From NCBI GenBank assembly GCA_016618385.1, contig JABFOP010000159.1:438555-502554 (forward strand): a DNA stretch of 64,000 nucleotides. Reading direction: 5' to 3'. Positions 6,494-63,700 of the stretch are shown here, piece by piece. The notes below the pieces were generated by a model that had not been told where the DNA came from, did not search any database, and worked only from the letters and a program-made list of their open reading frames with translations. Numbering within the stretch: position 1 is the first letter of the stretch; every line of letters starts with the position of its first letter. This stretch comes from Nymphon striatum (taxonomy: Eukaryota). The position numbers were made by a program, and so were the translations under genes.

Positions 6494-7566
6494 ATGTAAC
6501 CCGCCACAGCAAAATGAGTCGTAAGTCCCACAGTGACATACTGCGCTATAGCCGGTTAATGCAAAGAAAGCTTAAAACTTTCGATTTTTATGTATCTATA
6601 TAAAATAAAATCCGATATTTAATTTAATGTAAAGGTTCAGCTGATTAAATGACGCTAATTTAATTAAATTTATGTTTTCCGAGTTGATATTGTTATTATT
6701 TGCTAAAACAATGCATGAAATTAGTCAAATTACCCCATTTTCGATCATTAAATCTAAACACTTCTCCGCGGAAACCCCATGAAAATTTAACATGTACGGA
6801 CTCGTCTCGTTGTCTAGTTTCTAAATATAGAAGGCATGTTCAGGTTTTTCCCAATATAAACCAATCATCGCTCGGTACTTACAAATATGATGAACTTACA
6901 ATTATGATGGTATTTATTTTAACCTTATTGCACTAAACTCACATGGGTTTATGGCAAGCTGGAGGTCGTTTCCATCCGACTGAATGCAGTGCTTCTCTGT
7001 TAGAACTACAAGCCATGGTGGGCGAGTCCTATTTCTCACACCGCAGTCAAGAATAGGCGTTCCTCGCAGGTGCTACACTCCACCGGGATCACCCTACTCT
7101 TTATTCGAATAGTGAAGTGTGTTCTTTAGCGTGCAGAGGGTATGACTCTCCTTTACACGGGACCTCCATTTAACGTCCTATCCGAGGGACGGAGTATTTT
7201 CTCTCTAAAACCAGCCTGCATCCAGTATCAGAGAGGAGAGCACGAGAATACGCAACGTAGAGGGTGAAAAAGTGGTAGGGTACGAATGGGATTCGAACCT
7301 GGGTCTTTCAATCCCAGAACAGAGATCTTAACCACTCAGCCACCACGCCCTCTATTTAAGATCAATTATCTCAAAGTATTTTTCATTTTATCTCCGATAC
7401 CCTGAAATCTTTAAAATGTCATAATTCGGTAACCGATTGATGGATTGAAAAGCTGTTTGGATTTAATGAAAGCTGACATTCTTATCTTTCTATTGGTATT
7501 TATAACTCCATATCTCAATTTGGTGCATCACGACTCATTTTGCTGTGGTGGGTCACATATTTCATG
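6494..7566. mobile_element. MITE family B copy 1 (TIR TGTGACCCGCCACAGCAAAATGAGTCGTAAG, TA flanks), carrying a nested SINE
   Basis: 'tatgtaacccgccacagcaaaatgagtcgtaag' at the left end and 'cgactcattttgctgtggtgggtcacata' at the right end are inverted. The second copy at 26515-27476 shares termini and internal sequence but lacks the SINE. Confidence 0.6.
6912..7352 (-). mobile_element. Full-length SINE (tRNA-derived head, conserved central domain, 3' tail) inserted in MITE B
   Basis: The reverse complement begins 'gagggcgtggtggctgagtggttaagatctctgttctgggattgaaagacccaggttcgaatccc' (tRNA-like). It continues through a core 'ttagagagaaaatactccgtccctcggataggacgttaaatggag...cacttcactattcgaa' shared with six other copies in the window, then an A-rich end. 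Confidence 0.7.
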
Positions 7567-8370
7567 CCATCTGTTTTCATCAAGTACTTGGTTACTCTAT
7601 CAAAAGCTATGACCAGTTCCTTCCAGACTAATACAAAAATATAGGATTTTAGTTGTTTTTCTATTCAATGTGAAACTTGATCATGTTTAAATTTTATTTT
7701 ATTTAATCGCAACATCACTCATTATGAGAGAAAATATTTTGCTGTTTCTTAAGACAGGTGATGCAAGTGTACCACTTCACCAAGTGATGAAGTGAGTTCG
7801 TAAATATCAGAGTTTATGCTTCTATTCTTCTTAGAATCTTTATCAACATCATATTCAAGATATGAATTAGTTTTTCTCCTGCACCAGCCCTCGCCCGATT
7901 CAGAAAAGAAAGTATGATTATATACATCTTAGTGCTTATCTTTTCCTAGTGATACTTTCATCTTCCTCAACCATTCTAAAGTGCCACTCAAGTCAGGGTA
8001 TACCGTAAAGTAGGGGTGGTAACCACTTACATGCTCTTAGCCATATATAATGTTGAAATTAAATTGTCGTATTTTGTTTTTAACTTTACTTGTATCATGC
8101 ATGGCTTGGTGAGATGCATACAAATAAATATGTAGTTCGTAAAGTTCCTCGAATTTCATAAAATCTAGAGTTTCTAACATGGGATTTTCAAAATTACTAA
8201 ATGAAACAGCTAACCCATCATGCATAGGTACATTACCAACTTTAATTATGTGTTTATGGAGGAATTTTTGCTACCAGACATAAAATAAAAGCAGTATATT
8301 TAGCTTTAAACTTGATTTATAATATTTTTATGCATTGGCTCATTTTAATTGTTTATACATACCTCTGTAG

Positions 8371-17174: not shown

Positions 17175-20115
17175 TAGTAGTCCAGTAAATCTAGCGATAA
17201 TTAGGGCTGAACCTAGAACAAATTGCAATAGAAGGTTTTTTTGCTTTAACTTGTTTATTAGGTCCCTCTGATGAACATATAAAAAGTCTCCAACTTTTGG
17301 ACACCGGGAAATGGCTTAATTTGCATAAATTCAAGATGGCAGCCGTCCAAAGCTTCAATTTACAGATAACTTTTTTCTGGTTGCTCCTAGACCCTATAAA
17401 TGTATTACAATCAACGTTTTTTGGCTTTAACTTGTTCATTAGGTCCCTCTGATGAATATATAAAAAGTCTCCAACTTTTGGACACCGGGAAAGGGCTTAA
17501 TTTGCATAAATTCAAGATGGCCGTCGTCGAAAGCTTCAATTTACAGATAACTTTTTTTGCTCCTAGACCCTATAAATGTATTACAAACAACGTTTTTTGG
17601 CTTTAACTTGTTTATTAGGTCCGTCTGATGAACATATAAAAAGTCTCCAACTTTTGAACACCGGGAAAGGGCTTAATTTGCATAAATTCAAGATGGCAGC
17701 CGTCCAAGCTTCAATTTACAGATAACTTTTTTCTGGTTGCTCCTAAGACCCTATAAATGTATTACAAACAACGTTTTTTGGCTTAAACTTGTTCATTAGG
17801 TCCCTCTGATGAACATATAAAAAGTCTCCAACTTTTGGACACCGGGAAAAGGCTTAATATGCATAAATTCAAGATGGCCGCCGTCGAAAGCTTCAATTTA
17901 CAGATAACTTTTTTCTGGTTGCTCCTAGACCCTATAAATGTATTACAAACAACGTTGTTTGGCTTTAACTTGTTCATTAGGTTCCTGTGCTTAACATATA
18001 AAAAGTTTCCAATCTAATTCCAAAATTTGGGCGAGTTATAGCCATTCTTATATAATGTACCAAAAATAATTTTTTCGTTTGAATCTAATTTGTCGTTCGA
18101 TTAAAAAGTCGATTGTGAGTCGCCTATTGATCGTAATCGAATTTACATTGTAGGCAGGTTATAGAGCTTGAAGTAAGGAAGACAACTATGTGCGTCTTGA
18201 AACGCTATTCTAAAATGTTGGCCCGTTATAGCCATTCTTAGATCATGTACCAAAATGAAGGTTTTCGCTTAAATTTCATTAGTCATTTGATTAAAAAGTC
18301 GATTGTGAGTCGCCTATTGATTAGTAATTGAATTTGGATTGTGGGCAGGTTATAGAGCTTGAAGTAAGGAAGACAACAGTGTGTGTCTTGAAATCAAATT
18401 TCAAAATTTGGGCGAGTTATAGCCATTCTTATATCATGTACCAAAAATTAATTTTTTGTTTGAATCTAATTTGTCATTCGATTAAAATGTCGATTGTGAG
18501 TCGCCTATTGATCGTAATCGAATTTAAATTTGACGTATGTTATAGAGCTTGAAGTAAGGAAGACAACTATGTGCGTCTTGAAACGCTATTCTAAAATGTT
18601 GGCCCGTTATAGCCATTCTTAGATCATGTACCAAAATGAAGCGTTTTCGCTTAAATTTCATTAGTCATTTGATTAAAAAGTCGATTGTGAGTCGCCTATT
18701 GATCGTAATTGAATTTGGATTGTGGGCAGGTTATAGAGCTTGTAGTAAGGAAGACAACAATGTGTGTCCTGAAATAAAATTCCAAAATTTGGGCAAGTTG
18801 TAGCCATTCTTATATCATGTACCAAAAATAAAGTTTTTGTTAGAATCTAATTTGTCATTCGATTAAAAAGTCGATTGTGAGTCGCCTATTGATCGTAATC
18901 CAATTTGCATTGTAGGCAGGTTATAGAGCTTGAAGTAAGGAAGACAACTATGTGCTTCTGGAAACGCTACTCCAAAATGTTGGCGCGTTATAGCCATTCT
19001 TATATCATGTACCAAAAATATTTTTTTGTTTGAATCTAATTTGTCATTCGATTAAAAAGTCGATTGCGAGTCGCCTATTGATCGTAATCGAAATTGCATT
19101 GTGGGCAGGTTATAGGGCTTGAAGTAAGGAAGACAACTATGTGCGTCTTGAAACGCTATTCTAAAATGTTGGCGCGTTATAGCCATTCTTATATCATGTA
19201 CCAAAATGAAGGTTTTCGATTGAATTTCATTTGTAATTCGATTCAAAAGTCGATTGTGAGTTGCATATTAATCGTAATCGAAATTGGATTGTGGTCAGGT
19301 TATAGAGCTTGAAGTAAGGAAGACAACAATGTGTATCTTGAAATCAAATTCCAAAATTTTGGCGAGTTATAGCCATTCTTAGATCATGTACCAAAAATAA
19401 TTTTATTTTTTGAATCTAATTTGTCATTCGATTAAAAAGTCGATTGTGAGTCGCCTATTGATCGTAATTCCAATTTGCATTGTAGGCAGGTTATAGAGCT
19501 TGAAATAAGGAAGACAACTATGTGCTTCTGGAAACGCTACTCCAAAATGTTGGCGCGTTATAGCCATTCTTAGATCATGTACCAAAATGAAGATTTTTGC
19601 TTAAATTTCATTAGTAATTCGATTAAAAAGTCGATTGTGAGTCGCCTATGGATCGTAATTGAATTTGGATTGTGGGCAAGTTATAGAGCTTGAAGTAAGG
19701 GAAACAACAATGTGTGTCTTGAAATCAAATTCCAAAATTTGGGCGAGTTATAGCCATTCTTAGATCATGAAATTGAAGCTTCGGACGGCGGCCATCTTGA
19801 ATTTATGCAAATTAACCACTTTCCCGGTGTCGAAAAGTTGGTGACTTTTTATATGTTCATCAGAGGGACCTAATGAACAAGTTTACGTTGTTTGTAATAC
19901 ATTTATAGGGTCTAGGAGCAACCAGAAAAAAGTTATCTGTAAATTGAAGCTTTGGACGGCTGCCATCTTGAATTTATGCAAATTAAGCCCTTTCCCGGTG
20001 TCCAAAAGTTGGAGACTTTTTATATGTTCATCAGAGGGACCTAATAAACAAGTTTAAGCCAAAAAACCTTCTATTGCAATTTGTTCTAGGTCAAACCCTA
20101 CTTTTACTGGACTAT
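17175..20115. mobile_element. 2.9-kb composite non-autonomous element: long TIRs built from about 180-bp tandem subrepeats, enclosing an internal satellite array
   Basis: Left end 'agtccagtaaatctagcgataattagggctgaacctagaacaaattgcaatagaagg' equals the reverse complement of right end 20050-20113. There are 4.5 subrepeat units (+) at 17216-18000 and 1.5 units (-) at 19769-20075. The satellite lies at 18020-19768. Confidence 0.5.
18020..19768. repeat. Satellite array of about 185-bp monomers in alternating A/B variants (about 370-bp higher-order unit), roughly 9.5 monomers
   Basis: Recurring 'ttatagccattcttagatcatgtaccaaaa...gattaaaaagtcgattgtgagtcgcctattgatcgtaatcgaatt...ggttatagagcttgaagtaaggaagacaac'. 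The same satellite occurs at 57835-58702 and 63395-63700. Confidence 0.75.
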
Positions 20116-21324: not shown

Positions 21325-21540
21325 TTGAGTGGATTATCCCTTTAAGTGAAAGAAAAGCCTAATGTGGTTTTCTGATCTTGAAAAACGTGCAAAATTACTT
21401 GAAGATATGTTTAGAAATATTTTGTGTCTGCAATCAGTGAAATTTGAGAGCACTTCCAAAATTAAAAGTTAAAGAGAGAACTACTGACTGACTGGCTGAA
21501 ATAAATTAGCATTAAGTTGGCATACGGAGCTCCTCACTCT

Positions 21541-21547
21541 TATAAAT
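21541..21547 (+). promoter_or_regulatory. TATA box (TATAAAT) about 45 bp upstream of the TRIM-NHL ATG
   Basis: 'cactcttataaatcgctg' is positioned appropriately for a short 5'UTR. Confidence 0.3.
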
Positions 21548-21591
21548 CGCTGTCTTCTTTCTCCTTTTCATTCCCAAGCAAAGTACTGAAA

Positions 21592-22866
21592 ATGGCAAGT
21601 GTTGTTCACGAGGTCACATCTTCTCCTTGCATAGAATGTCAAAAACCCGTTGTGAAGGGGTGTCAAATTTTAACATGCAATCATATATCTTGCAGACAAT
21701 GTTTACGGAAGACAAGCACTCAGAAACACCCCCGGAGTCTACCAGTTGTTTTCTGCAAAACGTGCAAAAGATCTGTAGCAGCAATCGACGAAGAACGAAA
21801 AAGGTATGATTGCAACATTTGTGGCAAGAAGCAGACAGTTCTGTGCGAAAACTGTGCAATGTTTTTCTGCAATCGTTGTGTCTTGACGTTGCATGTCGAT
21901 CCAAGAACCAGAGACCATTTTTTCTTAAGTTTCACAACGAAGTCTGGAAATTCGGCAAATAAAGTTGCTGACACTGGTGTTATCCCAAAAGAATGTCCAG
22001 ATAAAAGCGTACGGTTCTTTGGGAGCTACGGTACCGCTGATGGAGAATTCGTCTGCCCAAAAGGAATTTGTTCAGATCACATGGGACGAATAATAATTGT
22101 GGAAACTTTTAATCACAGAATACAGGTCTTTGACAAGAATGGTAATTTCCTGCTCAAGTTCGGCAGCCTTGGCAACAAACCAGGGCAGTTCAAAACACCT
22201 ACTGGTGTTGCCAGTAACTCCGAAGCACACATAATTGTATCTGACAGTGGCAACAACAGGATACAGATCTTCAATGCATATGGTGATTTCATCCACGAGT
22301 TTGATGGCTGTGGTAGTGATGCAGACAAATTTAACAGGCCATTGGATGTTTGCGTGAACGAGAATGATCAAATTTTGGTTGCAGACTTTAAGAACCTGCG
22401 TGTCCAGTTGTTCACCAGAGACGGTATATACATTTACTCTTACGAATTTGATAAAACCTTCGCCGCATTTTCAAACTCTCCTTTTGAGCCTCAAGGTGTG
22501 TTCTCAAAAAAAGGCAAATTTTTCGTTACCGATGTTAGGAAAAGCCTGTACGTCGTACTAGACGAGAAGCTGGAAACTGCAAGATACTTTGGAAGACTTG
22601 TTTCTTGGAATGGGGCGTACATGAATCCAAACGGCATAACCGTAGACGAAAAGGGGCGCAGATTTTTAACCGATTGTATTAGCCGTGGTATACAAGTTTA
22701 TAGAGAGGATAATGAATATTTAGGCCTCATTAATACCGATATGGCTAGCCCATCTGGTATTTGTTTCACAGCAGAAGGCGATTTGATAGTCAGCGATTCT
22801 GGTTGCAACAGGATCGGAATATTCAGCGAAGAGTTCGTCTATAGAATATTGGAAAGTTTTAAGTAA
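21592..22866 (+). CDS. Single-exon RING / B-box / 6xNHL-repeat protein (TRIM-NHL-like E3 ligase family)
   Basis: RING: 'CIECQ...CQILTCNHISCRQC...VVFCKTC'. B-box: 'CNICGKKQTVLCENCAMFFCNRCVLTLH'. Repeated NHL blades: 'GQFKTPTGVASNSEAHIIVSDSGNNRIQIF', 'FNRPLDVCVNENDQILVADFKNLRVQLF', and so on. It is an uninterrupted 424-codon ORF. Confidence 0.75.
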   Translation: MASVVHEVTSSPCIECQKPVVKGCQILTCNHISCRQCLRKTSTQKHPRSLPVVFCKTCKRSVAAIDEERKRYDCNICGKKQTVLCENCAMFFCNRCVLTLHVDPRTRDHFFLSFTTKSGNSANKVADTGVIPKECPDKSVRFFGSYGTADGEFVCPKGICSDHMGRIIIVETFNHRIQVFDKNGNFLLKFGSLGNKPGQFKTPTGVASNSEAHIIVSDSGNNRIQIFNAYGDFIHEFDGCGSDADKFNRPLDVCVNENDQILVADFKNLRVQLFTRDGIYIYSYEFDKTFAAFSNSPFEPQGVFSKKGKFFVTDVRKSLYVVLDEKLETARYFGRLVSWNGAYMNPNGITVDEKGRRFLTDCISRGIQVYREDNEYLGLINTDMASPSGICFTAEGDLIVSDSGCNRIGIFSEEFVYRILESFK

Positions 22867-41256: not shown

Positions 41257-44200
41257 TTAACTGACATTATAATTATTAATAGAAAAAAATAGTGAAAGTG
41301 CTTTACCTCCTTCTGGTTTCAGACATTCAATAATCTTACTGACGGAGTAAAGAGATATTTTATTTCCACATTTTGTGCATACAATTTCCATATGATCTTT
41401 CCAAGCTATGTAAAATGCATCATGTTTACATTTGTAACAAATGAAGTAACAATCTTGTCTCAAACCGGGAACAGTTTCGATTGATTCAGAAATCATCTGG
41501 TATATTTCAAAAAGAACGTTCCTAAGTTCTTTTTTGTTCCCTTTTTTTAAGAAGAAAACTTCCATGCTGACACACATTGTTCCATAATCACATTCGCTCA
41601 TTGTTATCATTGCTTTCATACAGTTGAGATGCATAATGATTCCTGCTCGCCATGTAATGGTCAATTGACAGTCATTACAGCTTATAAGACCATAAAGTCT
41701 AACGATGATTTTAGACATAATTTCTGGGCATGAAGGTATATTTCTAAAACGAATTTCATATGTGAAATAACCCTGTTCTACAGATTCTTTAAATACTTTA
41801 AATTTGAGGTCATTTTTTAAATCTTTCTTTTGATAACATGGGAAAACATATTGTCGTCTTTCACACAAAATACTTGTTTCGTCCTTGAATTTTAATCTAT
41901 AACAACATTCTATCTTTTCCAAGAAGCCCAAAAGATGCTTTGTTTCCATTTCATTTTGGAGGTAATTTTGGATAAGCACTTCTAGTATAAGTTCAGATAA
42001 AACTCCTTCCTTAAGTAAATCCAGCATTTTATGTAGTGTTTCCGGATCTATATTCAGTTTATTTGCCTTTTCGTTTAGTGTTTCTAAAAGACCTTTAGTC
42101 AATGAAAATAATTTAAAGAAGGTTTTTTCTTTTGAGAACAAAGCTTCCAAATCATGGTGGAAAAGACTTCTAAGGTATGATATAAGAACTGCAGGACGAT
42201 GAAATATGACTTCTTCATGTTCTCTGGGTCGATGACGAATAATTTTTCCAATTTCTTCCAAGTATGTTAAAGTGACTTCCACATCGCTTAAATTCACTAT
42301 CTTTGCATAATCGCATGCCATTTCTTTTAGAAATATAAAATGAACAACTATTTTCTTTCATAACAATTTCTTCAAATCTATTCCATGAAACTGGTGTTCT
42401 TCTTAGAATTTTCTGCTCATCACTCATATAAAATTTTTGAACTATATCTTTGACTTTTTTAACGCTGATATGCATGGTATTCAAGCAATTAATTGGTAGA
42501 ACGTCTATAATTACTGGCATTAACATTTTCGGATGGTCCTACACATCTCTTTATTTCTATATACTCATTCCATCTAATTTTTAACCAATTAATTCTTATT
42601 TCAAGTAATGTTTATATTCAATCTTGTCAACATGCGATGCCAGTATTATAACGTGTGCATTTGAAACGTAAGAAGTCAACATATCACACCACCTACCAAC
42701 CTGAGTATGAAAAGACTGTTTTGAATAAATGGATATGTCCACAACTAGTATGTAGATAGAATTTTTTGAAAAGAAGAGGCAATGTGTTGATTCGTAGATA
42801 TCCTGTCCAGCTAGATCGTAGAATTTCATATTCATTTGGATCTCCGACAAATACACTTCATAATATCCGATCCACTCGTGTTCTTTCGGGTGATCTCGTG
42901 AAATGGCCGAGCATGATAGTTATGCATGAAACTTGTCTTGCCTGACAGGCTTTTCGCCCAGCATGACGATTCTAGCTTCAGGTTCTTTGTAGATTATTTC
43001 ATATGAATCATGTAAGTATTTTTTAATACCATGAAGTCCCAAGTTTAAAATACTCTCTTGTGGATAGATAAAAGGATTACCTTCATACAAAAAAGTATGC
43101 ACGCTATCTGGAACCGCTTCAAAGCAAAATGTTTTCAATTCTATTCTTCGAAATGTCCAATGATAGTTAACGTTTCTGTGATAACAACTGATTCAATGTT
43201 GTCGATCTGAAGTATAGCGTTCTGCTGCATTGATAAGAATTTCAACAATTTCAATACCAAATATTTTATGTGATACACTGTTTCATTCTATTATTGGACA
43301 CATCAATGTTTTCCTAAAAGGATTAAATTATAGATACTATCTGGAATTTTTTCTATTTTATTTTGGCTTAGATTTATTTGTTCGAGGTTTTTCAGAGAAT
43401 CAAATAAAGCCTCTGATACATTAGTGATCCCAGTTTTACTCATATCCAAAACTTTGAGATTTGGCAAGTCCACATTATATTGTTCTAAATTTGGGAGATA
43501 ACAACACGACAAATTTAATTCCTGTTAAACTTTTCATCCGAAAAATATACTCAGGAACATAATAATTACTTCCTTTTAGAGAAAATTTTTTCAGTCTGGT
43601 TAAATTAGTTGGAGGAGGAACAGCAATGATTAAAAGATGATTAGAATAGCCGTCAACAATCTTATCCTGCAGAGACAGGTTTTCGACAATTTCCATTAAT
43701 TTGGTACAATCAGCCAATTTTAACTTATTTCCAGACAAATTAACGTACTTTAAGCTATCAGGAAATATTATACTTGAAATTGAGTCAATGATCATTGTGA
43801 TCTAGCACATAAATTAATTAAGTTTTTTAATTCAGATATTTCATCTGGAATAATTTTGATTGCATTTCTTGATATATATAAATTTTGAAGCTTTTCCATG
43901 TATTTTATATCGGAAGGAAGCTTTTCAATCATATTTTTTGATAGATCTAAGTGAAAAATATTCGTTAACTTGAACAGATCATTAGGAATTTGCTCCAATC
44001 TATTATCATATGCAATAAGCTCCTGCATATCTTTCATATTTAATAAAGTTTCAGGTAGATGTTCTAGATAGCAACATGAAATATTTAAGTGCGTGATTCT
44101 AAATGAACTAGGTGAGTTAAAAACGTTGGCTTTGACTTAAAAGACTATGATAAATGGTATCAGAATTAGTATCGAACAATCCGTAACTTTGGAAATTAGC

Positions 44201-50503: not shown

Positions 50504-53500
50504 TCAAAGTGCCTTACCTCCTTCTGGTTTCAGACTTTCAATAATCTTACTGACAGAGTAAAGGGATATTTTATTTCCACATTTTGTGCATACAATTTCC
50601 ATGTGATCTTTCCAAGCTATGTAAAATGCATCATGTTTACATTTGTAACAAATGAAGTAACAGTCTTGTCTCAAACCGGGAACAGTTTCGATTGATTCAG
50701 AAATCATCTGGTATATTTCAAAAAGAACGTTCCTAAGTTCTTTTTTGTTCCCTTTTTTTAAGAAGAAAACTTCCATGCTGACACACATTGTTCCATAATC
50801 ACATTCGCTCATTGTTATCATTGCTTTCATACAGTTGAGATGCATAATGATTCCTGCTCGCCATGTAATGGTCAATTGACAGTCATTACAGCTTATAAGA
50901 CCATAAAGTCTAACGATGATTTTAGACATAATTTCTGGGCATGAAGGTATATTTCTAAAACGAATTTCATATTTGAAATAACCCTGTTCTACAGATTCTT
51001 TAAATACTTTAAATTTAGGGTCATTTTTTAAATCTTTCTTTTGATAACATGGGAAAACATATTGTCGTCCTTTCACACAAAATACTTGTTTCGTCCTTGA
51101 ATTTTAATCTATAACAACATTCTATCTTTTCCAAGAAGCCCAAAAGATGCTTTGTTTCCATTTCATTTTGGAGGTAATTTTGGATAAGCACTTCTAGTAT
51201 AAGTTCAGATAAAACTCCTTCCTTAAGTAAATCCAGCATTTTATGTAGTGTTTCCGGATCTATATTCAGTTTATTTGCCTTTTCGTTTAGTGTTTCTAAA
51301 AGACCTTTAGTCAATGAAAATATTTAAAGAAGCTTTTTTCTTTTGAGAACAAAGCTTCCAAATCATGGTGGAAAAGACTTCTAAGGTATGATATAAGAAC
51401 TGCAGGACGATGAAATATGACTTCTTCATGTTCTCTGGGTCGATGACGAATAATTTTTCCAATTTCTTCCAAGTATGTTAAAGTGACTTCCACATCGCTT
51501 AAATTCACTATCTTTGCATAATTGCATGCCATTTCTTTTGAAATATAAAATGAACAACTATTTTCTTTCATAACAATTTCTTCAAATCTATTCCATGAAA
51601 CTGGTGTTCTTCTTAGAATTTTCTGCTCATCAGTCATATAAAATTTTTGAACTATAGTCTTTGAACTTTTTAACGCTGATATGCTTGGTATTCAAGCAAT
51701 TAATTGGTAGAACGTCTATAATTACTGGCATTAACATTTTGGATGGTCCTACACATTTCTTTATTTCTATATACTCATTCCATCTAAATTTTAACCAATT
51801 AGTTCTTATTTCAAGTATGTTTACATCAATCTTGTCAACATGCGATGCCAGTATTATAACGTGTGCATTTGAAACGTAAGAAGTCAACATATCACACCAC
51901 CTACCAACCTGAGTATGAAAAGACTGTTTTGAAAAAATGGATATGTCCACAACTAGTATGTAGATAGAATTTTGTGAAAAGAAGAGGCAATGTGTTGATT
52001 CGTAGATATCCTGTCCAGCTAGATCGTAGAAGTTTCATTTTCATTTGGATCTCCGACAAATACACTTCATAATATTCAACCTACTCGTGTTCTTTCGGGT
52101 GATCTCGTGACATGGCCGAGCATGATGTTATGCATGAAAGTTGTCTTGCCTGACAGGCTTTCGCCCAGCATGACAATTCTAGCTTCAGGTTCTTTGTAGA
52201 TTATTTCATATGAATCATGTAAGTATTTTTTAATACCATGAAGTCCCAAGTTTAAAATACTCTCTTGTGGATAGATAAAAGGATTCCCTTTATACAAAAA
52301 ATCATGGACGCTATCTGGAACAGCTTCAAAGCAAAAATGTTTCATTTTATTCTTTGAAATGTCTAAAGATATTAACGATTTCTGTGATAACAACTGATTC
52401 AATGTTGTCGATCTGAAGTATAGCGTTCTGCTGCAGTGATAAGAATTTCAACAATTTCAAACCAAATATTTTATGTGATACACTGTTTATTCTATTATTG
52501 GAAACATCAATGATTTCCAGAAGATTTAAATTATAGATACACTCTGGAATTTTATCAATTTGATTTTGGCTTAGATTTATTTGTTCGAGGTTTTTCAGAG
52601 AATTAAATAAGGCCTCTGATAGATTAGTGAGCCCAGTTTTACTCATATCCAAAACTTTGAGATTTGGCAAGTCCACATTACATTGTTCTAAATTTGGGAG
52701 ATAACAACACGACAAATTTAATTCTGTTAAATTTTTCATTCGAAAAATATACCCAGGAACATTATAATAATTACTTCCTCTTAGAGAAAATGTTTTCAGT
52801 CTGGTTAAATTAGTTGGAGGAGGACCAGCAATGTTTAACATATGATTAGCATCGACGTTAAATATCATATCCTGCATCGACAGGTTCTCAACAATTTCCA
52901 TTAAATTGGTACAACCTGCCAATTTTAACTTATTTCCAGACAAATTAACGTACTTTAAGCTATCAGGAAATATAATACTTGAAATTGAGTCAATGATATT
53001 GTGATCTGCACATAAATTAGTTAAGTTTTTTAATTCAGATATTTCATCTGGAATAATTTTGATTGAATTTCTTGATATGTACAAATTTTGAAGCTTTTCC
53101 ATGTATTTTATATTGGAAGGAAGCTTTTCGATCATATTTTTTGATAGATCTAAGTGAAACATTTTCGTTAACTTGAACAGATCATTAGGAATTTGCTCCA
53201 ATCTATTATCATATGCAATAAGCTCTTGCATATCTTTCATATTTAATAAAGTTTCAGGTAGATGTTCTAGATTGCAACATGAAATGTTTAAGTGCGTGAT
53301 TCTAAATAAGCTAGGCGAGGTAAAATGATGGCTTTGCATGAGAAGGGTTTGAACAGGTGAATTATAACGTAATCCGATATATGTAAAAGATTGGTCGAAT
53401 GCTATATCAGAAAATATTAAATTATTTGAAACATCTAATTTCTTTAAATTTGGCATTCTAAGAAACTTATCAATAAGTAAAACAAGTCTACACCCTGCCA

Positions 53501-53874
53501 TGTTCAGCTCCTCAACTTGTTGGAAACTTAAGACAATCGATGCATCATCATTTACTGCATTTCCTTTGAAACAGATATGTATACTTTTAGTCAGGAACTC
53601 AAATGATGATAAATACGGTTTGAATGTTGGATGATCGCTATTACAAAATTCGACAAAGTCACTTGCTTCGTATAGTGAAGAAATGTTTTTCCAAATCTCT
53701 TTACAACGTTCTGATGCATACGCCTCTGAGATATTTAACTTTTCTTCAGTCGATTGTGAATATCTTTCCAATTTTATGTTCATAGAAATTACATTTGTTA
53801 TTTGAGACCTCTTGTTCAAATTTTTTCACTTCTTTTACGAATGTTTTGCTGAAAAAATACGTCCATATTGACAT
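50504..53874 (-). pseudogene. ROCO-family gene copy B (LRR / Roc GTPase / COR), more complete but frameshifted
   Basis: LRR ORF 52347-53819 has about 15 LxxLxLxxNxIxxLP repeats. Roc P-loop 'RIVMLGESLSGKTTF' is present. Switch-II 'FYDLAGQDIYES' is present only in a shifted frame. 'VGRWCDMLTSYVSNAHVIILASHVDKI' follows. COR-like ORFs lie at 50504-51637. Probable ATG is at 53872-53874 ('MSIWTYFFSKTFVKEVKKFEQE'), followed by a 1-bp insertion that creates a TGA. Confidence 0.6.
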
Positions 53875-55126: not shown

Positions 55127-55722
55127 TATAGATGACTTCCAAAACTGGCGCCTTCTACAGAGAAAAATACAGCACTATTGCATCATTAGGAGTAGAAAAC
55201 TCAGTTTAAGCAGCTAGCTATACAAGGTGACTCAGAATTAACTATCTATTTCAATGAAATTGAAGAAATCTTTAAAAAAGACACTTTTATTTATGTTTAT
55301 CATGTTTAATATGTGTTAAAAATGTATAAATTTTAAAAATTTTAAATAATTTTATGAAGTTTTCAATTTTTTAATTTTTTTCATAATTTTATTTTCATAA
55401 TTTTTTCATAGTTTTCATAGTTTTCATAGGTGGTTAATGTCAATTTTCGGGAAACTTGCTTGCGGGACAGATACGAATTTAGTTGTTAAAATAGGCATAT
55501 TATACTTTACCTTGACTATAACGCTTCTAGATAGTCTTCACTGTGATTGTGTGAATTTTGGTAGAAATGGTGACATTATTTCTGTGTTTATTTTGTAATT
55601 TAAATGTTGTTGATTTTTGTTGGCTATTGATCGAGTACTGTGTGTCGATACGACTTATGCTTGAATTTTTCTCCTAGTGACGTCATTCCCTGTAGAGGGC
55701 GCCAGTTTCGGAAGTCATCTAT
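55127..55722. mobile_element. About 600-bp MITE with 33-bp TIRs (TATAGATGACTTCCAAAACTGGCGCC)
   Basis: 'atagatgacttccaaaactggcgccttctacag' at 55128 is the reverse complement of 'ctgtagagggcgccagtttcggaagtcatctat' at 55689. Confidence 0.55.
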
Positions 55723-55744
55723 AGAATGAAATTTCCTTTTTATT

Positions 55745-56190
55745 TTAGGTGAAATTTCCTTTTTATTTTAGAATTTAATTATTTGGATTTCTACACTGTT
55801 TGCCTTTACTACAACTACAAAATGTCACACATGTTATGTTCCTTTCTCTGCAAGTGCACGTTTTGATACTCATACATGATGTTGGGCATTTGCATGGAGA
55901 GGGCAGGTCATCGGGCCTACACGATACTGGCAGTAACTGGTGCTATGCCAACATCCGTTGCTTCATATCCATACTGGAGTGGATCTGGTTTGGTGACTGC
56001 TGGAGTTGGAGCTTGCTACCACATTTTACACTGCAGATATGATCGCTTTATGTGTTCTCGTAGCGTTGATGCTATGAGCAACACACAAGCTGGTTGAAGT
56101 CAAGCTCTTGTTTGGAGTTGTGGTACTGCTCCCATCGATATTCATCGAAAGTTGAACAGTCGGTCTTCTTTAATCCAGACACAAGGAACT
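55745..56190. repeat. Left arm of a large inverted duplication (partner at 56760-57195)
   Basis: 55801-56190 is the reverse complement of 56760-57150 at about 93% identity. The flanks 55745-55800 and 57151-57195 are also inverted matches. Confidence 0.7.
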
Positions 56191-57150
56191 TTTCAGCATT
56201 GTTTGTTATCTCTGGTGACAGTTCTTCTACACCAAATACTTCCAGTAGTGAGATATCCATGGATGTTCTCAGGCCAGACAGCTTTGGACCCACCTTGCTG
56301 GTACTGTCGCAACCACTGAGAGTATGAATGGCTGGGAGACACGACACCAAACTGTTGTCAAGTTGATCAACCAACAGGTAGACTGGAACAGTTTTCTTTG
56401 TTTTCCGGTTACCAAGCTTCACGTACAGCTTTTGTAGTTGCCAGGATTTGTTGAAGTAGAAGATGAGGTTAACAAAGACATCTGTGTCAGGTGAGTCAAC
56501 CAAGACTGATTGGACCCCGTGTTTCACAGCACCATCGTTAATATGGAACATGATTCTGTCGTCGGCTTCTTCTTGGTTGCTTGCGAGCTCTGCGATCTGT
56601 GTTTCAGTGCCAGCCTAACAGTTTCCTGCATTCTCTCCCCATATACTCCTCCAAAGAAGATCTCTTTGTTCGACTCGACATTCTGCAGCATCCATTTGAA
56701 GACATACTCCTGCAACCGAACTTTGTTCAACGTTGAGCTCCAGAACATATCAAGATCGACAGGGTTCCTTGTGTCTGGATTAAAGAAGACCGACTGTTCA
56801 ACTTTCGATGAATATCGATGGAAGCAGTACCACAACTCCAAACAAGAGCTGGACTTCAACCAGCTTGTGTGTTGCTCATCAACGCTACGAGAACACATAA
56901 AGCGAGCATATCTGCAGTGTAAGATGTGGTAGCAAGCCCCAACTCCTGCAGTCACCAAACCAGATCCACTCCAGTATGGATATGAAGCAACGGATATTGG
57001 CATAGTACCAGTGATACTGCCAGTATCGTGTAGGCCCGATGACCTGCCCCCTCCATGCAAATGCCCAACATCATGTATGAGTATCAAAACGTGCACTTGC
57101 AGAGAAAGGAACATAACATGTGTGACGTTTTGTGGTTTTAGTAAAGGCAA
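56072..57150 (-). pseudogene. Second member of the FEN-like/H3TH family, frameshifted, embedded in about 450-bp inverted duplication arms
   Basis: Minus-strand 'QIAELASNQEEADDRIMFHINDGAVKHGVQSVLVDSPDTDVFVNLIFYF...CLPAIHTLSGCDSTSKVGPKLSGL' parallels 'NHEEADTRIFAHIA...VIQATDTDIIFLAMYHF...ILSGCDSVSYPFKRGKK' of the 59845 ORF. There is a frame break near 56540. Confidence 0.5.
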
Positions 57151-57224
57151 AAAGTATAAAAATCCAAATAATTAAATTCTAAAATAGGAACAATATGCAA
57201 AAGGTACAACAGGTAATATGATGA

Positions 57225-57760
57225 AGTACACATATGTAGTGCGTAACATGCTGAAATCGGTTTTTGGTAATTATCTTAATTAAAAACCATTGACATTTGG
57301 ATATGAAAATGTATTACTGACTCCATAATGTGGCCATTAATATTAATGTTAATTTAATAAATTTATATCATTTATTACATTTATATTAATTATTTATTAA
57401 TATTAATATTATTAAACATTTTGAGTGGCCGGGCAACCTCCTAGGTCCAACAGTTCTGTAGATACAGTCACGGCAAAAAGGGGGCATATGGCACATAAGC
57501 ACTAAGAATTTGTGACATGCTGAAATGCTGAAATCGGTTTTTGGCCATTATCTTAAAAACCATTGACATTTGGATATGAACATGTATTACTGACCCCCCA
57601 TAATGTGGCCATTGCGCACATTTTGAGTGGTCGGGCAACCTCCTAGGTCCAACGGTTCTGTAGATACAGTCATGGCAAAAAAAAGGGTATGACCCAAAAA
57701 GGGGTGTGGCCATTTCAGCTATTTCGCCGTCAGTGGGAAATGTGTCACCAATCAAATATT
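57225..57760. repeat. Tandem duplication of an about 270-bp unit
   Basis: 'catgctgaaatcggtttttgg..attatcttaa...ccattgacatttggatatgaa.atgtattactgac...gagtgg.cgggcaacctcctaggtccaac.gttctgtagatacagtca.ggcaaaaa' occurs twice. Confidence 0.6.
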
Positions 57761-57834
57761 GTTCCTGGACCTTCAATTAGTGGATTTTTGAAAAGTTTAG
57801 CTCTGGACATAAAGTTGCATACAAAACCACCATG

Positions 57835-58701
57835 AGCTACTCTAGTATATGAGTGTCTTGAAGCGCTATTCCAAAATGTTGGCGTGTTATAGCCATTCTT
57901 ATATCATGTACCAAAATGAAGGTTTTCACTTGAATTTCATTTGTCATTAGATTAAAAAGTCAATTGTGAGTTGGCTATTGATCGTAATCGAATTTTGATT
58001 GTAAGCAGGTTATAGAGCTTGAAGTAAGGAAGACAACAATGTGCGTCTTGAAATCAAGTTCCAAAATTTGGGGGAGTTATAGCCATTCTTAGATCATGTA
58101 CCAAAAATAATTTTTTCGTTTGAATCTAATTTGTCATTCGATTAAAATGTCGATTGTGAGTCGCCTATTGATCGTAATCGAATTTGGATTGAGGGCAACT
58201 TATAGAGCTTGAAGTAAAGAAGACAACTATGAGTGTCTTGAAGCGCTATTCCAAAATGTTGGCGTGTTATAGCCATTCTTATATCATGTACCAAAATGAA
58301 GGTTTTCACTTGAATTTCATTTGTCATTAGATTAAAAAAGTCAATTGCGAGTTGGCTATTGATCGTAATCGAATTTTGATTGTAAGCAGGTTATAGAGCT
58401 TGAAGTAAGGAAGACAACAATGTGCGTCTTGAAATCAAATTCTAAAATTTGGGGGAGTTATAGCCATTCTTAGATCATGTACCAAAAATAATTTTTTCGT
58501 TTGAATCTAATTTGTCATTCGATTAAAAAGTCGATTGTGAGTCGCCTATTGATTGTAATCGAATTTAAATTTGACACATGTTATAGAGTTTGAAGTAAGG
58601 AATACAACTATGTGCGTCTAAAAACGCTATTCTAAAATTTAGTGCGTTATAGCCATTCTTAGATCATGTACCAAAATGAAGGTTTTCGCTTAAATTTCAT
58701 T
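57835..58701. repeat. Satellite array (same 185-bp family as 18020-19768), truncated by an insertion
   Basis: Monomers 'ttatagccattcttagatcatgtaccaaaa...gtcgattgtgagtcgcctattgatcgtaatcgaatt'. The array stops at '...aaatttcatta' at 58701. Confidence 0.7.
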
Positions 58702-59385
58702 AGGCCAAACAAAAAAAAGGCTGTGTTTCCGGTAACGGTCTTGACAGACGGGAGGGTCGGTAGGTCGGTTTTATTTTTTTTTTTATTTATTATTTTTTTT
58801 TTTTATATAAAAATTATAAAAGTTAATAATATTAACTTTTATAATTTTTATATTAATTTTTTATTTAATATTTTTTATTTTATTCCCTTCACCCACCAAT
58901 TATACCATTTACTTCATTTGAAGGGCTATCTACATTTGATTCAAAGAAATACAAGTGTTTAAATCATTTAATTTAGACAAACATCATAGAGAAAAGAGAA
59001 GAATAAAAATCCAATTAACACTTAGCTTAATATATCCAGATTTTCACACCCAGAATATGTTCTTTGCATCTCTCTAATGTTTTTGGGAAAGTAATGCCCC
59101 GATTGAACTTCAATTACTGGCATGAATGTCACTTTAACTTTTCATAAATTAATAAAAAATCACCAAAATCCGGCATTTGACTATATATCCCATAATAAAG
59201 AGGTGAATGCAACAAATTACCACTCATTCTTTTTGTTATAAGCTTGGCTCTTATATGAAACAAGATTCAATGCAATTGGACCATCCATGAGGTCACCAGA
59301 GGTCAAAAGGTCACGAAAAGTGGGTTAAGCTGAAAATGTAACGCCTTTATCAAATAATTCACATTTTTACTACTTTGTAGTCTTT

Positions 59386-59690
59386 GGAGTCGCGGTGGCT
59401 GAGTGTTTAAGATCGTTATTCTGGGCCTGTAGGACCCAGGTTCGAATCTTATTCGAACCCCGCCACTTTTCACCGTTTTACGTTGTGTATTCTCGTACTT
59501 TCCTCTGATATTAGATGTAAGCTGATTTTAGAGAGAAAATACTCCGTCCCTCGGATAGAACGTTAAATGGAAGTCCCGTGTAAAGGAGAGCCATACCCTC
59601 TACACGTTAAAGAACCCACTTTGCTATTCGAACAAAAGTAGGGTGACAATTCCCGGTGAAGTGGTACACTTTCATTACATCAATTAGGAC
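59386..59690 (+). mobile_element. SINE copy nested in the composite element
   Basis: 'ggagtcgcggtggctgagtgtttaagatcgttattctgggcctgtaggacccaggttcgaatc' head plus conserved core. Confidence 0.6.
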
Positions 59691-59916
59691 CGCAATGGAA
59701 ATAAGTCTTTGGACTTTCTTGCGTCATCTTAGTTGAACATACTGTTTACCTAATAAACTCAAATCAAATCAAAGTAGTTGATGTATCCACATTTTCACAC
59801 CCAAAATATGTTCTTTGCATCCCTCTAATGTTTTTTAACTTTCTTTGCTTTCGTCTCTACTTGAAAGTGTTAGAACTGCATTTGAGAGGAAAGAGAAGGG
59901 CGAATCTGCTGCACTC

Positions 59917-61650
59917 ATGGAGGAAGTCATGAAATGCCTCGAGTCACTGGAGTCGCTCTGGGGAGATTTTGAGAGTGAATTAGGAGTAACAGCCCGTCTT
60001 TGGAGCATGTACATAGACATGATGCTTATTCTAAGGCGTTACATCCATGCTGAGAGAGCTGGGCTATGGCAACAACACTTACAAGAGGTACGGAATATGC
60101 TACCCTATACCATTGCTTCCGGTCATAGTAAGTATATGTCCTGCCTTCCGATCTACCTAAATGAAATGCAAAAGCTTCCAGAAACAGCACCAGAAGTGCA
60201 CGAGGAGTTTGCAGCTGGCAAATTCACAGTTCACCAGACTGCAGGAGACTTCAATGGTGTGTGGACAGACCTTGCAATGGCATTCATCCAACGGTTCAAC
60301 ACACTTGGTTCGAGTACATTTGGCCAACTTCAGGAAAGATACAGGGACAAACTCTTGAACATGAAACCCAGACATTGCACTGAAGTGCATTTCGTGGGCG
60401 ATCAATATGATTTTGAGTTGAAGAGTCTAAAGTCCGATGAACGCCAGAGACAGGAGTCAAATATCAACTTGCCAGAGTATGTTCCAGCGGACAGCATGAA
60501 AATCCCTGATTGGAAGACATTGCTATCAAACCCTTGTAACAGGACCAATATGCTGTCTTATCTTGCTTCACGTTGGTCTCAGGAGGCATCCTGGCCTGCT
60601 GGCTTCTGCCTGGTTCTTGGAGTGAACGCCCAGGCAACTCGTGTGACGCAGACGGAACATACCGATGTTGATGAACTGTATTGCCCTAACCACGAGGAGG
60701 CTGACACCAGAATCTTTGCTCACATTGCTAGTTGTGACGACAACAACGTATTTGTCATTCAGGCTACAGATACAGATATCATCTTCTTGGCAATGTATCA
60801 TTTCCCTCGATTGCCAAACGTTGTTGAGTTATGGGTGGAGAAGAATGATCTGTTCCTCTCCATCCATGATTTAGTGAATGAGTTGGCCAAAGCAGTTGGA
60901 AAGGACGGGTTAGCACTCACAGACACACTGCTCATCTCATACATTCTGTCCGGTTGTGATTCGGTGAGCTATCCTTTCAAACGAGGTAAGAAGAGAACAG
61001 TGAAAGTCGCACTCGAGCATGTTGACAAACACCCAACTTTGTCCAATTGCATCCGACACGAATCCGGTCCTTCTGCACATGATCAGGTGATAACTGAAGC
61101 ACGAAGCTTCTTTTGTGATCTTTACGGAAAGCCAGGGTATTTATCCCTGGATAAGCTACGCGCCCACTTGTTTGCATCTAGCAAACTAGATCTGCGCTCC
61201 CTTCCTCCAACAGAAGATGCGTTTCACTTCCATGTTCTCAGGAGCCTTTGTCAGATCTGCTTATACAAGCAAGCCTCACTCAGCAATCCAGTGCTTCTTC
61301 CACCTGAAGAGTATGGCAGAATTGTGGATGGTGACAGGTTAATTCCTGTCATGAAGAGCAAGCCATCAAAGCCTTCTGCTGCGAAGTTAAAGTACTGTAA
61401 ATGCAAGAAGAAACCGAACTGCCTGAGGAACTGCCCTTGTGCGAAAGCTGCAGTACCATGCATAATTGCATGTGCCTGCAATGGCGACAGAGAAAAATGT
61501 GGACGGCTTCTGACTGATCATTATGATGATGATGATGATAATGATGATGATGATGATGATGATGAGGAAATAGTGCTAATGACACTTTTGTACCGCACAA
61601 TTAAAAATGAAATATATGTAGTTAAATTCCTGATTTTAGTGATTTTTTAA
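59917..61650 (+). CDS. Uncharacterised protein: putative PIN/FEN-like 5'-nuclease core + H3TH-like motif + C-terminal CxC cysteine cluster + poly-Asp tail
   Basis: Open frame 59839-61650 (601 aa from TTG; first ATG at 59917, giving 577 aa). 'NHEEADTRIFAHIA', 'VIQATDTDIIFLAMYHF', 'LISYILSGCDSVSYPFKRGKKRTVKVAL', 'CKCKKKPNCLRNCPCAKAAVPCIIACACNGDREKCGR', 'DHYDDDDDNDDDDDDDEE'. There are no internal stops. Confidence 0.6.
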   Translation: MEEVMKCLESLESLWGDFESELGVTARLWSMYIDMMLILRRYIHAERAGLWQQHLQEVRNMLPYTIASGHSKYMSCLPIYLNEMQKLPETAPEVHEEFAAGKFTVHQTAGDFNGVWTDLAMAFIQRFNTLGSSTFGQLQERYRDKLLNMKPRHCTEVHFVGDQYDFELKSLKSDERQRQESNINLPEYVPADSMKIPDWKTLLSNPCNRTNMLSYLASRWSQEASWPAGFCLVLGVNAQATRVTQTEHTDVDELYCPNHEEADTRIFAHIASCDDNNVFVIQATDTDIIFLAMYHFPRLPNVVELWVEKNDLFLSIHDLVNELAKAVGKDGLALTDTLLISYILSGCDSVSYPFKRGKKRTVKVALEHVDKHPTLSNCIRHESGPSAHDQVITEARSFFCDLYGKPGYLSLDKLRAHLFASSKLDLRSLPPTEDAFHFHVLRSLCQICLYKQASLSNPVLLPPEEYGRIVDGDRLIPVMKSKPSKPSAAKLKYCKCKKKPNCLRNCPCAKAAVPCIIACACNGDREKCGRLLTDHYDDDDDNDDDDDDDEEIVLMTLLYRTIKNEIYVVKFLILVIF

Positions 61651-62413
61651 AAATTTATGTAAATCTAAAGTGACATTCATGCCAGTAATTTAAGTTCAGT
61701 CGGGGCATTACTTTCCTAAAAACATTAGAGGGATGCAAAGAACATATTCTGGGTGTGAAAATCTGGATATATTAAGCTTAAAGTAGGAAAAATGTGAAAT
61801 GTTTGATAAAGGCGTTAAATTTTCAGCTTGACTCACTTTCCGTAACCTTTTGACCTCTGTTGACCTCATGGATGGTCCAATCAAATTGAATCTTGTTTCA
61901 TATAAAAGCCAAGCTTATAACAAAAAGAATGAGTGGTCATTTGTTGCATTCACCCTTTTATTATGGGATATATGGTCAATTGAATTTCCCCTACCCCTCA
62001 ATTTCTTGTTTTTTACAATTGACGCTCCATGTTAAAAAAACGTCCCTACAGAATTCGTGCAATTCAAACCACCTTGCTAACGTCACTTTTCTGATGGCTA
62101 ACACCCCCACAGACATGATCTAGGGGTCAAAAATTTTATATTAGGGGTGTCACATAAAAATCAAATTTTGAGGTCTCGGATCCCAGACTATCAATACTAA
62201 AGAGAATCCGTTGACACGACATATTTGTTGCACTGATCTATATAGTAGTCTGCACTGTTCAGGGTGCCATGATAGATTTACCATCAGAATTATCACTTGT
62301 CAGTCAACGGCACTGGTCAACGGGCTATCTGATGAGTACGAGAACCATATTATATATATATTTATCGCACAACCTTGACTTTATTGCATGCATTTGGAGT
62401 TCTTATATTTCCT

Positions 62414-62488
62414 GTATAAGGACACGTCCCTATATATATCGTATAAGGACACGTCCCTATATATATCGTATAAGGACACGTCCCTATA
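62414..62488. repeat. 26-bp tandem repeat x3 (gtataaggacacgtccctatatatatc)
   Basis: Read directly in the sequence. Located inside the composite element. Confidence 0.7.
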
Positions 62489-63394
62489 TTGGTGTTGATT
62501 ACAGACACAGGGAGTCTGAGATTGTGAATGTTGCCTACCACAAATTTATTGTTCCTTTGTTATATTCCAAACACGCCGTTTACTTAACAAGTCAGTTCTC
62601 GAGTTTCAATTATGTTCAGTTGCGTCATTTCTATTTTGTTGAATTGAAGAAATCGGATATTTTCTAACCGACTTCTCGGAATTCATTGAAGTGTTTAAAC
62701 TTTTCCCCCTCCCGTTCTCACCCTCTCACCCTCTCAGCAATTTATATTCTTTTTTTTAGCTTGACTGGCACAAAACGAATCAATTTTAAAATCTATTTTA
62801 ATTAATAAATTCATTTTCAAAGCTACCTGCCGGTTGTGCAATAAACAGAATATAAAATTCGTGCCCGTTGCCACGAGATATATGGAACTCGTCAACTTAG
62901 TTTTAATTTCAGCTCGCCAAGGCTCGCCAAGGCTCGCTGAAATAAAAACAAAGTTGACTCGTTCCATATATTTCGTAAGCAACGATCACTCATTCTATAT
63001 CCTCTATTTATATATTTTTTATATTTACGAGAACCATATACCCATCACTGAGCGGAAGTTTAAAATCGAAATCGAAAGTGCAGTTAAACTGTACTTTCGA
63101 TTTCGATTTTAAACTTCCGGTTAAACTGTACTTTCGATTTCGGTTTTAAACTTCCGCTCAACTACGCACGTGCGCACAAGGAGGTGTAATGACACGAAAG
63201 GAATGGCCGTAGTTTGTAACAGATTTTTACTATTTAACGCATTTTAAGAGGTAGTTTTGTGACGTTTTTTCTTTACCATTTCATGCTTTTTACTATGTTT
63301 TTCCCGAATCATCATAAAAACTTTTCAGTCGGCGGTAAAATAACACGGTCGGTCGGGTTACCGGAAACACAACATTTTTTTTTTTTGGCCTTAG

Positions 63395-63700
63395 TAATTC
63401 GATTAAAAAGTCGACTGTGAATCGCCTATTGATCGTAATCCAATTTAAATTTGACGTATGCTATAAATCTTGAAGTAAGGAAGACAACTATATGTGTGTC
63501 TTGAAATCAAATTCCAAAATTTGGGTGAGTTATAGCCATTCTTAGATCATGTACCAAAAATAATTTTTTCGTTTGAATCTAATTTGTCATTCGATTAAAA
63601 AGTCGATTGTGAGTCGCCTACTGATCGTAATCGTATTTGGATTGAGGGCAAGTTATAGAGCTTGAAGTAAGGAAGACAACATGTGTGTCTTTGTAGCTCC
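63395..63700. repeat. Satellite array resuming after the insertion (about 1.7 monomers)
   Basis: 'taattcgattaaaaagtcgactgtgaatcgcctattgatcgtaatccaattt...' continues the monomer interrupted at 58701. Confidence 0.7.

Follow-up and report, generated by a model that had tools for sequence, protein, structure and literature searches.

A palindromic locus in Nymphon striatum as a probable head-to-head remnant of an AcademX-type DNA transposon

Academ, a superfamily of DNA transposons, was reportedly described by Kapitonov and Jurka in 2010. Within it, AcademX elements are recognized by a large open reading frame (ORF) in which a DDE transposase is combined with an XPG-type nuclease and, at the C-terminus, a Cys8 finger, by 3-bp target site duplications (TSDs) in animals, a D-D spacing of 138 to 192, a G/A/E/QxxH motif past the second D, two insertion domains, one between β2 and β3 and the other after β5, and a pyrimidine/purine pair at the termini (Kojima 2020, PMC7165386). 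Their terminal inverted repeats (TIRs) are sometimes longer than 100 bp, and exceed 500 bp in some Academ families; arthropods are among the published hosts of Academ (PMC7165386). Two rearrangements of maize transposons are also relevant here. Alternative transposition of Ac, either sister-chromatid or reversed-ends, yields inverted 'fractured Ac' copies and composite insertions (Wang et al. 2020, bioRxiv 10.1101/2020.01.07.897926), and Mu killer, a partial inverted duplication of MuDR, silences its family through a hairpin RNA (PMC3440606). The present analysis concerns a palindromic locus at 55.7 to 57.2 kb of a 64,000-nt stretch of Nymphon striatum DNA (GenBank assembly GCA_016618385.1, contig JABFOP010000159.1, positions 438,555 to 502,554, forward strand). 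This stretch, hereafter the window, is AT-rich (G+C about 35%), eukaryotic and rich in repeats. We conclude that the locus is probably what is left of an AcademX-type cut-and-paste DNA transposon, now dead and rearranged, with two right-end pieces joined head to head. The element belongs to a known superfamily, and its rearrangement is of a known kind, the inverted partial duplications of DNA transposons.

The anatomy of the locus emerges from comparison with a near-complete reference copy of 4,660 bp, L005 (L005:3584-8243, ENA ERZ26052287 ctg76188), which is flanked by a CAT/CAT target duplication. When L005 was aligned to the window with blastn, only two pieces were found: nt 3284-4279 in inverted orientation (56763→55764), and nt 3858-4660 in direct orientation (56765→57849). 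The first, copy A, lies on the minus strand; the second, copy B, lies on the plus strand and begins at 56764. The two arms of the palindrome are the overlap between these copies (nt 3858-4279), and the spacer that separates them is the extra length of copy A. The right arm alone runs on into family sequence, as far as the natural 3' end and the true right TIR. The left arm, which corresponds to the same stretch of L005 (nt ~3858-4279), has an insertion of 5 bp and a deletion of 2 bp, both private to it. No sequence of the left TIR or of the transposase was detected across the whole window by blastn or tblastn, so that the window retains only the last, right-hand 1.4 kb of an element of about 4.7 kb. 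Unlike an AcademX element, the window copy is a fragment: the left TIR, the transposase domain and the N-terminal portion of the nuclease are missing, and its right-hand stretch is doubled in inverted orientation.

The parent element can be described from its other copies. A complete member of the subfamily is about 4.7 kb long, has TIRs of 320 to 360 bp and 3-bp target duplications, and encodes one protein of about 1,300 aa comprising a DDE transposase, a FEN/XPG-like nuclease and a C-terminal Cys8 finger. In L005 this ORF (about 1,320 aa) runs in one reading direction with one stop and one frameshift, and in the proteins P0063 and P0109 the transposase-like and nuclease parts lie within one ORF. 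The gene sits between TIRs of 320 to 360 bp that are 93 to 97% alike in L001, L002, L005 and L009; the inverted repeats flanking L001 (359 nt, 97%) and L002 (321 nt, 93%) match window positions 57529-57849. Besides the CAT duplication of L005, TSDs are TAA/TAA in L001, ATA/ATA in L002 and CTA/CTA in L009, while the window copy, having a single end, is flanked by TAT. Three of these copies, L001, L002 and L009 (2.6 to 3.4 kb), are internal-deletion derivatives that retain the nuclease and Cys8 part, as are most sampled relatives.

All the diagnostic features of AcademX that could be read from these copies point the same way. The family termini are 5'-TACTCTAGTAGC … GCTACTCTAGTA-3' in all copies, including the window right end at 57849; as in AcademX, they have T at the 5' end and A at the 3' end, that is, the pyrimidine/purine pair. 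The D-D spacing (DNFD…WSDE) is unusually long, 174 in P0060 and 170 in L005, and falls within the published range. A GGFH or GPFH sequence, of the GxxH type, follows 26 residues past the second D; the third residue of the catalytic triad was not found. At the level of the fold, we found an RNase H-like domain in which β2 and β3 are separated by an insertion and β5 is followed by an all-α insertion domain. The analysis delimits an AcademX subfamily: its termini and 3-bp TSDs are established, a 4.7-kb copy serves as reference, and both enzymatic domains have support at the level of the fold.

Two further observations concern the TIRs. Read on the sense strand, the outermost 10 nt of both ends are TACTCTAGTA, with a fixed two-base asymmetry between the TIRs at positions 5-6, seen in every copy examined (for example window 57840-57849; L001:3990-3999 and 7112-7121; L009:1091 and 4384). 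In the window, the inner part of the TIR is also partially duplicated in tandem: 57252-57338 resembles 57529-57613 (89%) and 57416-57479 resembles 57618-57681 (95%), with an AT-rich insert at 57340-57415 between the partial duplicates. The features of the locus are listed in Table 1.

Table 1. Coordinates of the rearranged element, its junctions and the open reading frames of the locus (window positions)
Feature	Position	Strand	Length	Description
Left arm	55764..56189	-		C-terminal coding end (helical region and Cys8 finger), stop codon, about 20 nt of 3' untranslated region
Spacer	56190..56763	-		XPG/FEN-like nuclease core, element nt 3284-3857; contiguous upstream part of the left-arm gene copy
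Right arm	56764..57186	+		Second C-terminal coding end, continuous with the natural 3' sequence of the element
3' untranslated and subterminal region	57187..57528	+		Element sequence
Right TIR	57529..57849	+		AcademX-type; terminus …GAGCTACTCTAGTA at 57849, then flank TAT, then 190-bp satellite array
Central head-to-head junction	56754..56773, joint 56763/56764	+		…GATCGACAGG joined to GTTCCTTGTG…
Junction string	across 56763/56764			GATCGACAGGGTTCCTTGTG
Left junction	55727..55771			Arm stops abruptly 20 nt past the stop codon, then unrelated DNA
Left junction string, reverse complement				AATTAAATTCTAAAATAAAAAGGAAATTTCA
ORF	56524-57150	-	208 aa	Chimeric
ORF	56072-56551	-	159 aa	Genuine, truncated remnant of the nuclease frame (EEADDR … DTDV … SGCDSTSK … LVCCS)
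ORF	55800-56042	+	80 aa	
ORF	56094-56327	+	77 aa	
ORF	56510-56932	+	140 aa	

The inverted repeat had been noticed in a first-pass annotation of the window, and it is indeed present, with figures that gapped alignment corrects. The left arm measures 426 nt, the right arm 423 nt and the spacer between them 574 bp. The arms differ by 15 substitutions (10 transitions and 5 transversions) and by two indels, one of 5 bp and one of 2 bp, which gives an identity of 96.4% when gap columns are excluded and about 95% when they are included; the earlier value of about 93% was an underestimate. A repeat search returned three gapless blocks of 172, 136 and 116 nt with 96 to 98% complementarity. Complementarity ends at 55764 and 57186, short of the limits first proposed for the arms (55745 and 57195).

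The protein search was made with a query in which the right-arm peptide was joined to the minus-strand spacer frames. It returned 58 homologues in the protein collection, among them Nymphon striatum hypothetical proteins (75 to 92% identity), a Hydractinia protein and many others, and their alignment to the sense frame of the arms extends down to 35% identity, covering HIKRAYLQ..W and the C-rich tail. In the frame that these homologues conserve, the arms read …FLVSGLKKTDCSTFDEYRW…HIKRAYLQCKMW.QAP…PCKCP..C..C.C…NPNN and a stop; on the plus strand, one frame of the right arm gives GFLVSGLKKTDCSTFDEYRWKQYHNSKQELDFNQLVCCSSTLREHIKRAYLQCKMW, a stop, QAPTPAVTKPDPLQYGYEATDIGIVPVILPVSCRPDDLPPPCKCPTSCMSIKTCTCRERNITCVTFCGFSKGKKYKNPNN and a second stop. 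The C-terminal end of the family is ordered in the same manner, HIKRAYLQ..W being followed by YGY and then by a C-rich tail finishing in NP. Judged by this homology, the arms are the C-terminal, Cys-rich coding end of a predicted FEN/XPG-like nuclease gene. They had at first been taken for its N-terminus, an interpretation that is not tenable, since the conserved frame gives the C-terminal tail and the true upstream sequence of the family is missing from the window: what precedes PVDLDMFW in the family is …RIDIIFDVYQKSSIKQMER…SDNQKL, which has no occurrence there. The supposed N-terminal peptide, MPLLKPQNVTHV…, is an antisense reading of the C-terminal coding region. The left arm had likewise been said to encode the same N-terminal peptides with frameshifts; two frameshifts are there, although the peptides are again the antisense of the C-terminal region. 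In the true frame, both arms carry a premature TAG stop (KMW-stop-QAP), at a position occupied by Leu in L001, L005 and L006. The right arm is otherwise in one frame, with this one TAG, whereas the left arm has the two frameshifts besides.

The spacer carries the motifs PVDLDMFW … EEADDRIMFH … SPDTDVF … SGCDSTSK … NAEK, with a -1/+1 frameshift pair at about 56600-56640. The label 'FEN-like' initially given to this gene core holds at the level of the fold, as judged from an AlphaFold model of P0027, a full-length relative of 563 aa (pLDDT, the model's confidence score, 79.6). In Foldseek searches the nuclease domain of the model matched Xrn1/Rat1, the T5 5'-exonuclease/FEN, mycobacterial FEN, Rad2/XPG, GEN1 and ExoIX, with E values of 1e-4 to 1e-2 and a probability of about 1.0. 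The nuclease domain is therefore predicted to adopt a FEN/XPG-like fold, like the PIN-like 5' nucleases FEN1/XPG/Rad2, T5 5'-exonuclease and Xrn1, and its acidic motifs are placed equivalently (D…DIIFD…EEADDR…DTDV…GCD). Unlike these nucleases, the family has no match to Pfam or PDB profiles at the level of the sequence: Pfam scans of the reconstructed protein, of the chimeric ORF and of the full-length relatives gave zero matches above threshold, the sole Pfam signal being a sub-threshold match to Tesmin/TSO1 CXC in P0048, and a sequence profile search of PDB gave no meaningful match. A second difference is that the domain sits inside a transposase polyprotein and is followed by a Cys-rich finger.

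Every ORF quoted in the first-pass annotation was found in the window (Table 1). The longest of them, of 208 aa, had been described as reading from the right arm into the PIN motifs. Over codons 1-129 it lies antisense to the true frame of the right arm; from there on it follows the family's genuine frame (PVDLDMFW…GGVYG), until that frame is lost at the frameshift pair mentioned above, before EEADDR. This ORF is a chimera that owes its existence solely to the junction, and no protein that spans the junction was found elsewhere.

The question remains as to whether the second open strand of the arms is itself a gene. It was correctly observed at the outset that both strands are jointly free of stops over more than 100 codons (56524-56932, 136 codons), and genuine overlapping antisense coding had been among the readings offered. 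Such a protein-coding gene, proper to the transposon subfamily, would explain why the antisense frame is stop-free over the full right arm (129 codons), a run that arises in only about 0.4% of codon shuffles, why it is open for 129 to 181 codons in the window, L005, L006 and L007a, and why it is annotated as a 'gene' in several assemblies (P0179-P0183). However, the conservation of homologues designates one strand only. When the right arm is compared with its counterpart in L001, to which it is 77% identical in nucleotides, the ratio of non-synonymous to synonymous rates (dN/dS) is 0.09 in the sense frame, with zero stops in L001, against 0.26 in the antisense frame, which has 5 stops in L001. 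In L003, a distant full-length relative, stops are abundant in all three antisense frames; L001 and L003 are the two relatives in which the sense gene is intact. The openness of L005 to L007 is subject to ascertainment bias, because these copies were retrieved through the open antisense frame, and in L008 and L009, which were retrieved via the sense protein, that frame is disrupted by stops and frameshifts. As for the low antisense dN/dS, it mirrors the constraint on the sense frame, because the wobble positions of the antisense frame fall on those of the sense frame. The antisense frame is not kept open across the family to a greater degree than the constraint on the sense frame accounts for, having stops in L001, L003, L008 and L009; it has zero Pfam matches, and the left arm breaks it with two frameshifts. 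The antisense stop-free run hinges only on the wobble base preceding each Tyr, His or Gln codon. A 129-codon run is uncommon, yet it is a trait that one sub-lineage inherited once. We therefore regard an overlapping gene as highly improbable, and the long antisense ORF as a by-product, stop-free by chance and specific to that lineage. Between the two arms, 5 synonymous and 10 non-synonymous substitutions are counted in the sense frame, and 5 and 7, respectively, in the antisense frame: since the duplication, no frame has been protected and both arms have decayed neutrally.

Other explanations of the palindrome itself have to be weighed against a rearranged AcademX remnant, and the divergence between the arms bears on most of them. 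The arms are 96.4% alike, as compared with 77 to 89% to every other sampled copy, they share about 10 states unseen in any other sampled copy, and each also has derived changes relative to outgroup copies. The premature TAG is present in both, which implies that the source copy was already a pseudogene. This kinship makes it unlikely that two members of the same subfamily inserted independently in opposite orientation, adjacent or nested, and were each truncated by deletion, the arms being what they still share, even though both halves are natural, uninterrupted stretches of the element and the family is known to insert into its own copies (L007). Cut-and-paste elements do not insert in 5'-truncated form, so that at least three separate deletions would be required; the inner ends of both copies differ from TIR termini; and the breakpoints of both fall in the same 9-mer repeat (see below), which favours one coupled event. 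The same differences speak against a false palindrome assembled from a long read that was chimeric or folded back. Inverted duplications form a recognized class of artefact, but the arms differ by substitutions with a transition bias and by only 2 indels, and the frameshifts and the derived states of both arms relative to outgroups fit evolution and not read error or a polished duplicate; moreover, the spacer lacks symmetry, and the left arm gives way to unrelated sequence. An artefact is accordingly very unlikely in our opinion, and we take the inverted duplication to be real and old, with about 1.8% change per arm.

Hardly credible, finally, is the proposal that the arms are 450-bp functional TIRs of a mobile, foldback-type deletion derivative. 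At about 425 bp each they are long, a gene fragment lies between them, and some Academ TIRs do exceed 500 bp. However, the termini of the family are known and different, its real TIRs being another sequence of 320 to 360 bp, of which the window has one copy, at 57529-57849. The outer end of the right arm is not a boundary, for family sequence continues for 660 bp more up to that TIR; no 3-bp TSD is found at 55764/57186, where the left arm ends instead at a junction of microhomology and duplication; the arms are coding sequence that is under purifying selection in relatives; and the absence of a junction-spanning protein elsewhere also counts against mobility. Of the three readings offered by the first-pass annotation, a foldback-type rearrangement is the one backed by evidence.

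How, then, could two right-end pieces of one AcademX-type element have become joined head to head? The central junction offers one indication. Both of its breakpoints lie within two copies of AAAGTTCCT, with an offset of 3 nt, and this is the sole direct repeat of at least 9 nt in the 1-kb gene segment; the chance of such a coincidence is about 2e-4. The shared AAAGTTCCT points to a single coupled event rather than to random breaks. We suppose that the inverted duplication was produced in one event, by one of two routes. Template or strand switching, or end joining, may have occurred while a break in or beside the element was repaired; alternatively, transposition of the alternative type may have been followed by fusion of two aborted or broken ends, as in the composite insertions of maize Ac. 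A later deletion, or a second step of the same event, would then have removed the outer 380 bp of copy A, which would have been joined to unrelated DNA via an 8-nt microhomology and a templated 22-nt duplication. At this left junction, the 8 nt CTAAAATA are common to the arm end and to a 22-nt unit, TGAAATTTCCTTTTTATTTTAG, which is tandemly duplicated (55727-55771). Neither this unit nor the adjacent miniature inverted-repeat transposable element (MITE) was retained as part of the AcademX element, as they have no homology to any family copy. The right TIR abuts satellite DNA at 57850 and the left side of the locus has none, which fits a deletion or rearrangement on the left.

The alternative-transposition route is made more plausible by related loci such as L007 (ENA ERZ25071447 ctg86508). 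There, at 6957-6958 and 7694-7695, two TIR termini are attached to either side of one internal ATG of a family copy; between them lies an inverted piece of about 740 bp that represents the element's 3' end, and the ATG recurs in inverted form. These features are the hallmark of a clean product of reversed-ends (alternative) transposition with a 3-bp TSD, and show that the family was active and makes inversions. In L004 (L004:4805-4993, ENA ERZ26052287 ctg78184), coding stops after …LQCKM and is joined to an inverted 3' piece that leads from the inner TIR/3' untranslated region back to the C-terminal coding region. With the window, inverted 3' pieces are thus found in about 3 of 10 sampled copies. 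As in Ac composite insertions, the window has one transposon end in two copies of unequal length, each broken internally and joined head to head, in a family that undergoes alternative transposition. In contrast to these insertions, both borders of which are termini accompanied by one TSD, the window has a terminus at its right border only (57849), and its left copy ends 380 bp short of the terminus. The breakpoints at a 9-nt repeat are not predicted by random fork collapse, and the host and the transposon superfamily are different.

Several points weigh against the interpretation that we favour. The assignment to AcademX rests on the published diagnostic features, and not on a transposase phylogeny with the Repbase Academ sequences. 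The palindrome is known from assembled sequence alone, so that an assembly error is formally possible, and the comparison copies all come from other genomes, which leaves room for two independent insertions of a young subfamily. The left copy has neither TIR nor TSD, and the composite-insertion model consequently requires an extra deletion. At the central junction, no inverted microhomology of the kind used in template switching and no fold-back priming site was found, yet both breakpoints lie in the sole 9-nt direct repeat, and no model that we tried accounts for an inverted joint at a direct repeat. Simple fold-back priming, synthesis-dependent strand annealing with template switching, microhomology-mediated end joining of two resected ends and a staggered 3-nt cut were considered, and none fits an inverted joint together with a direct 9-mer. 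Twin priming of the L1 type is ruled out, as this is a cut-and-paste element with TIRs and TSDs.

A read-through RNA over 55764-57186 is predicted to fold into an uninterrupted stem of about 425 bp (minimum free energy -908 kcal/mol), and the resulting double-stranded RNA would match the conserved 3' coding end of the AcademX family. By analogy with Mu killer, such a transcript could be a hairpin source of endogenous small interfering RNAs that silence the family in an arthropod, a scenario that we consider unlikely. Like Mu killer, the locus is a naturally occurring duplication, in inverted orientation, of a portion of a DNA-transposon gene; unlike it, the duplicated part is the 3' coding end rather than the TIR and the 5' part of the transposase, and the case is known here only from its sequence. 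If the scenario were true, the locus would be an animal counterpart of Mu killer and of the Ac composite insertions, a case of a transposon silenced by its own rearranged copy. The locus itself is otherwise of little consequence, being one more decayed, rearranged transposon copy. Its analysis nevertheless removes two tempting misreadings, that of a palindromic N-terminus of a gene and that of an overlapping antisense gene, and provides a worked example for a poorly characterized superfamily, in a family where inverted 3' pieces recur among the copies.

The neighbourhood of the locus is rich in other repeated elements. A second, distant AcademX-like copy occupies 59024-61982, bordered on each side by an inverted repeat of about 360 bp (59024-59376 and 61614-61982). 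It contains an ORF of 601 aa (59845-61650, plus strand), 23% identical to the family, which spans the last part of the transposase domain, the nuclease domain and the Cys-rich tail; an acidic run comes after the tail. This copy is housed in a 4.69-kb insertion (58702-63391) with 35-bp terminal inverted repeats (AGGCCAAAC…GGTAAC), which interrupts one unit of the 190-bp satellite; arrays of this satellite are found at 57850-58701, 63392-63681 and 18017-19781. The MITE-like element just left of the junction (55127-55723, 597 bp) has 38-bp terminal inverted repeats (TATAGATGACTTCC…) and is flanked on both sides by TA, a TSD of the Tc1/mariner type. Long ORFs with metazoan-type domains, which speak for an animal origin of the window, are present at 21517-22866 (+), 52347-53819 (-), 41257-42321 (-) and 2128-3219 (-); these domains are B-box and NHL repeats (TRIM-like), leucine-rich repeats, weak Roc-COR-like matches and a zinc finger of the C17orf113 type.

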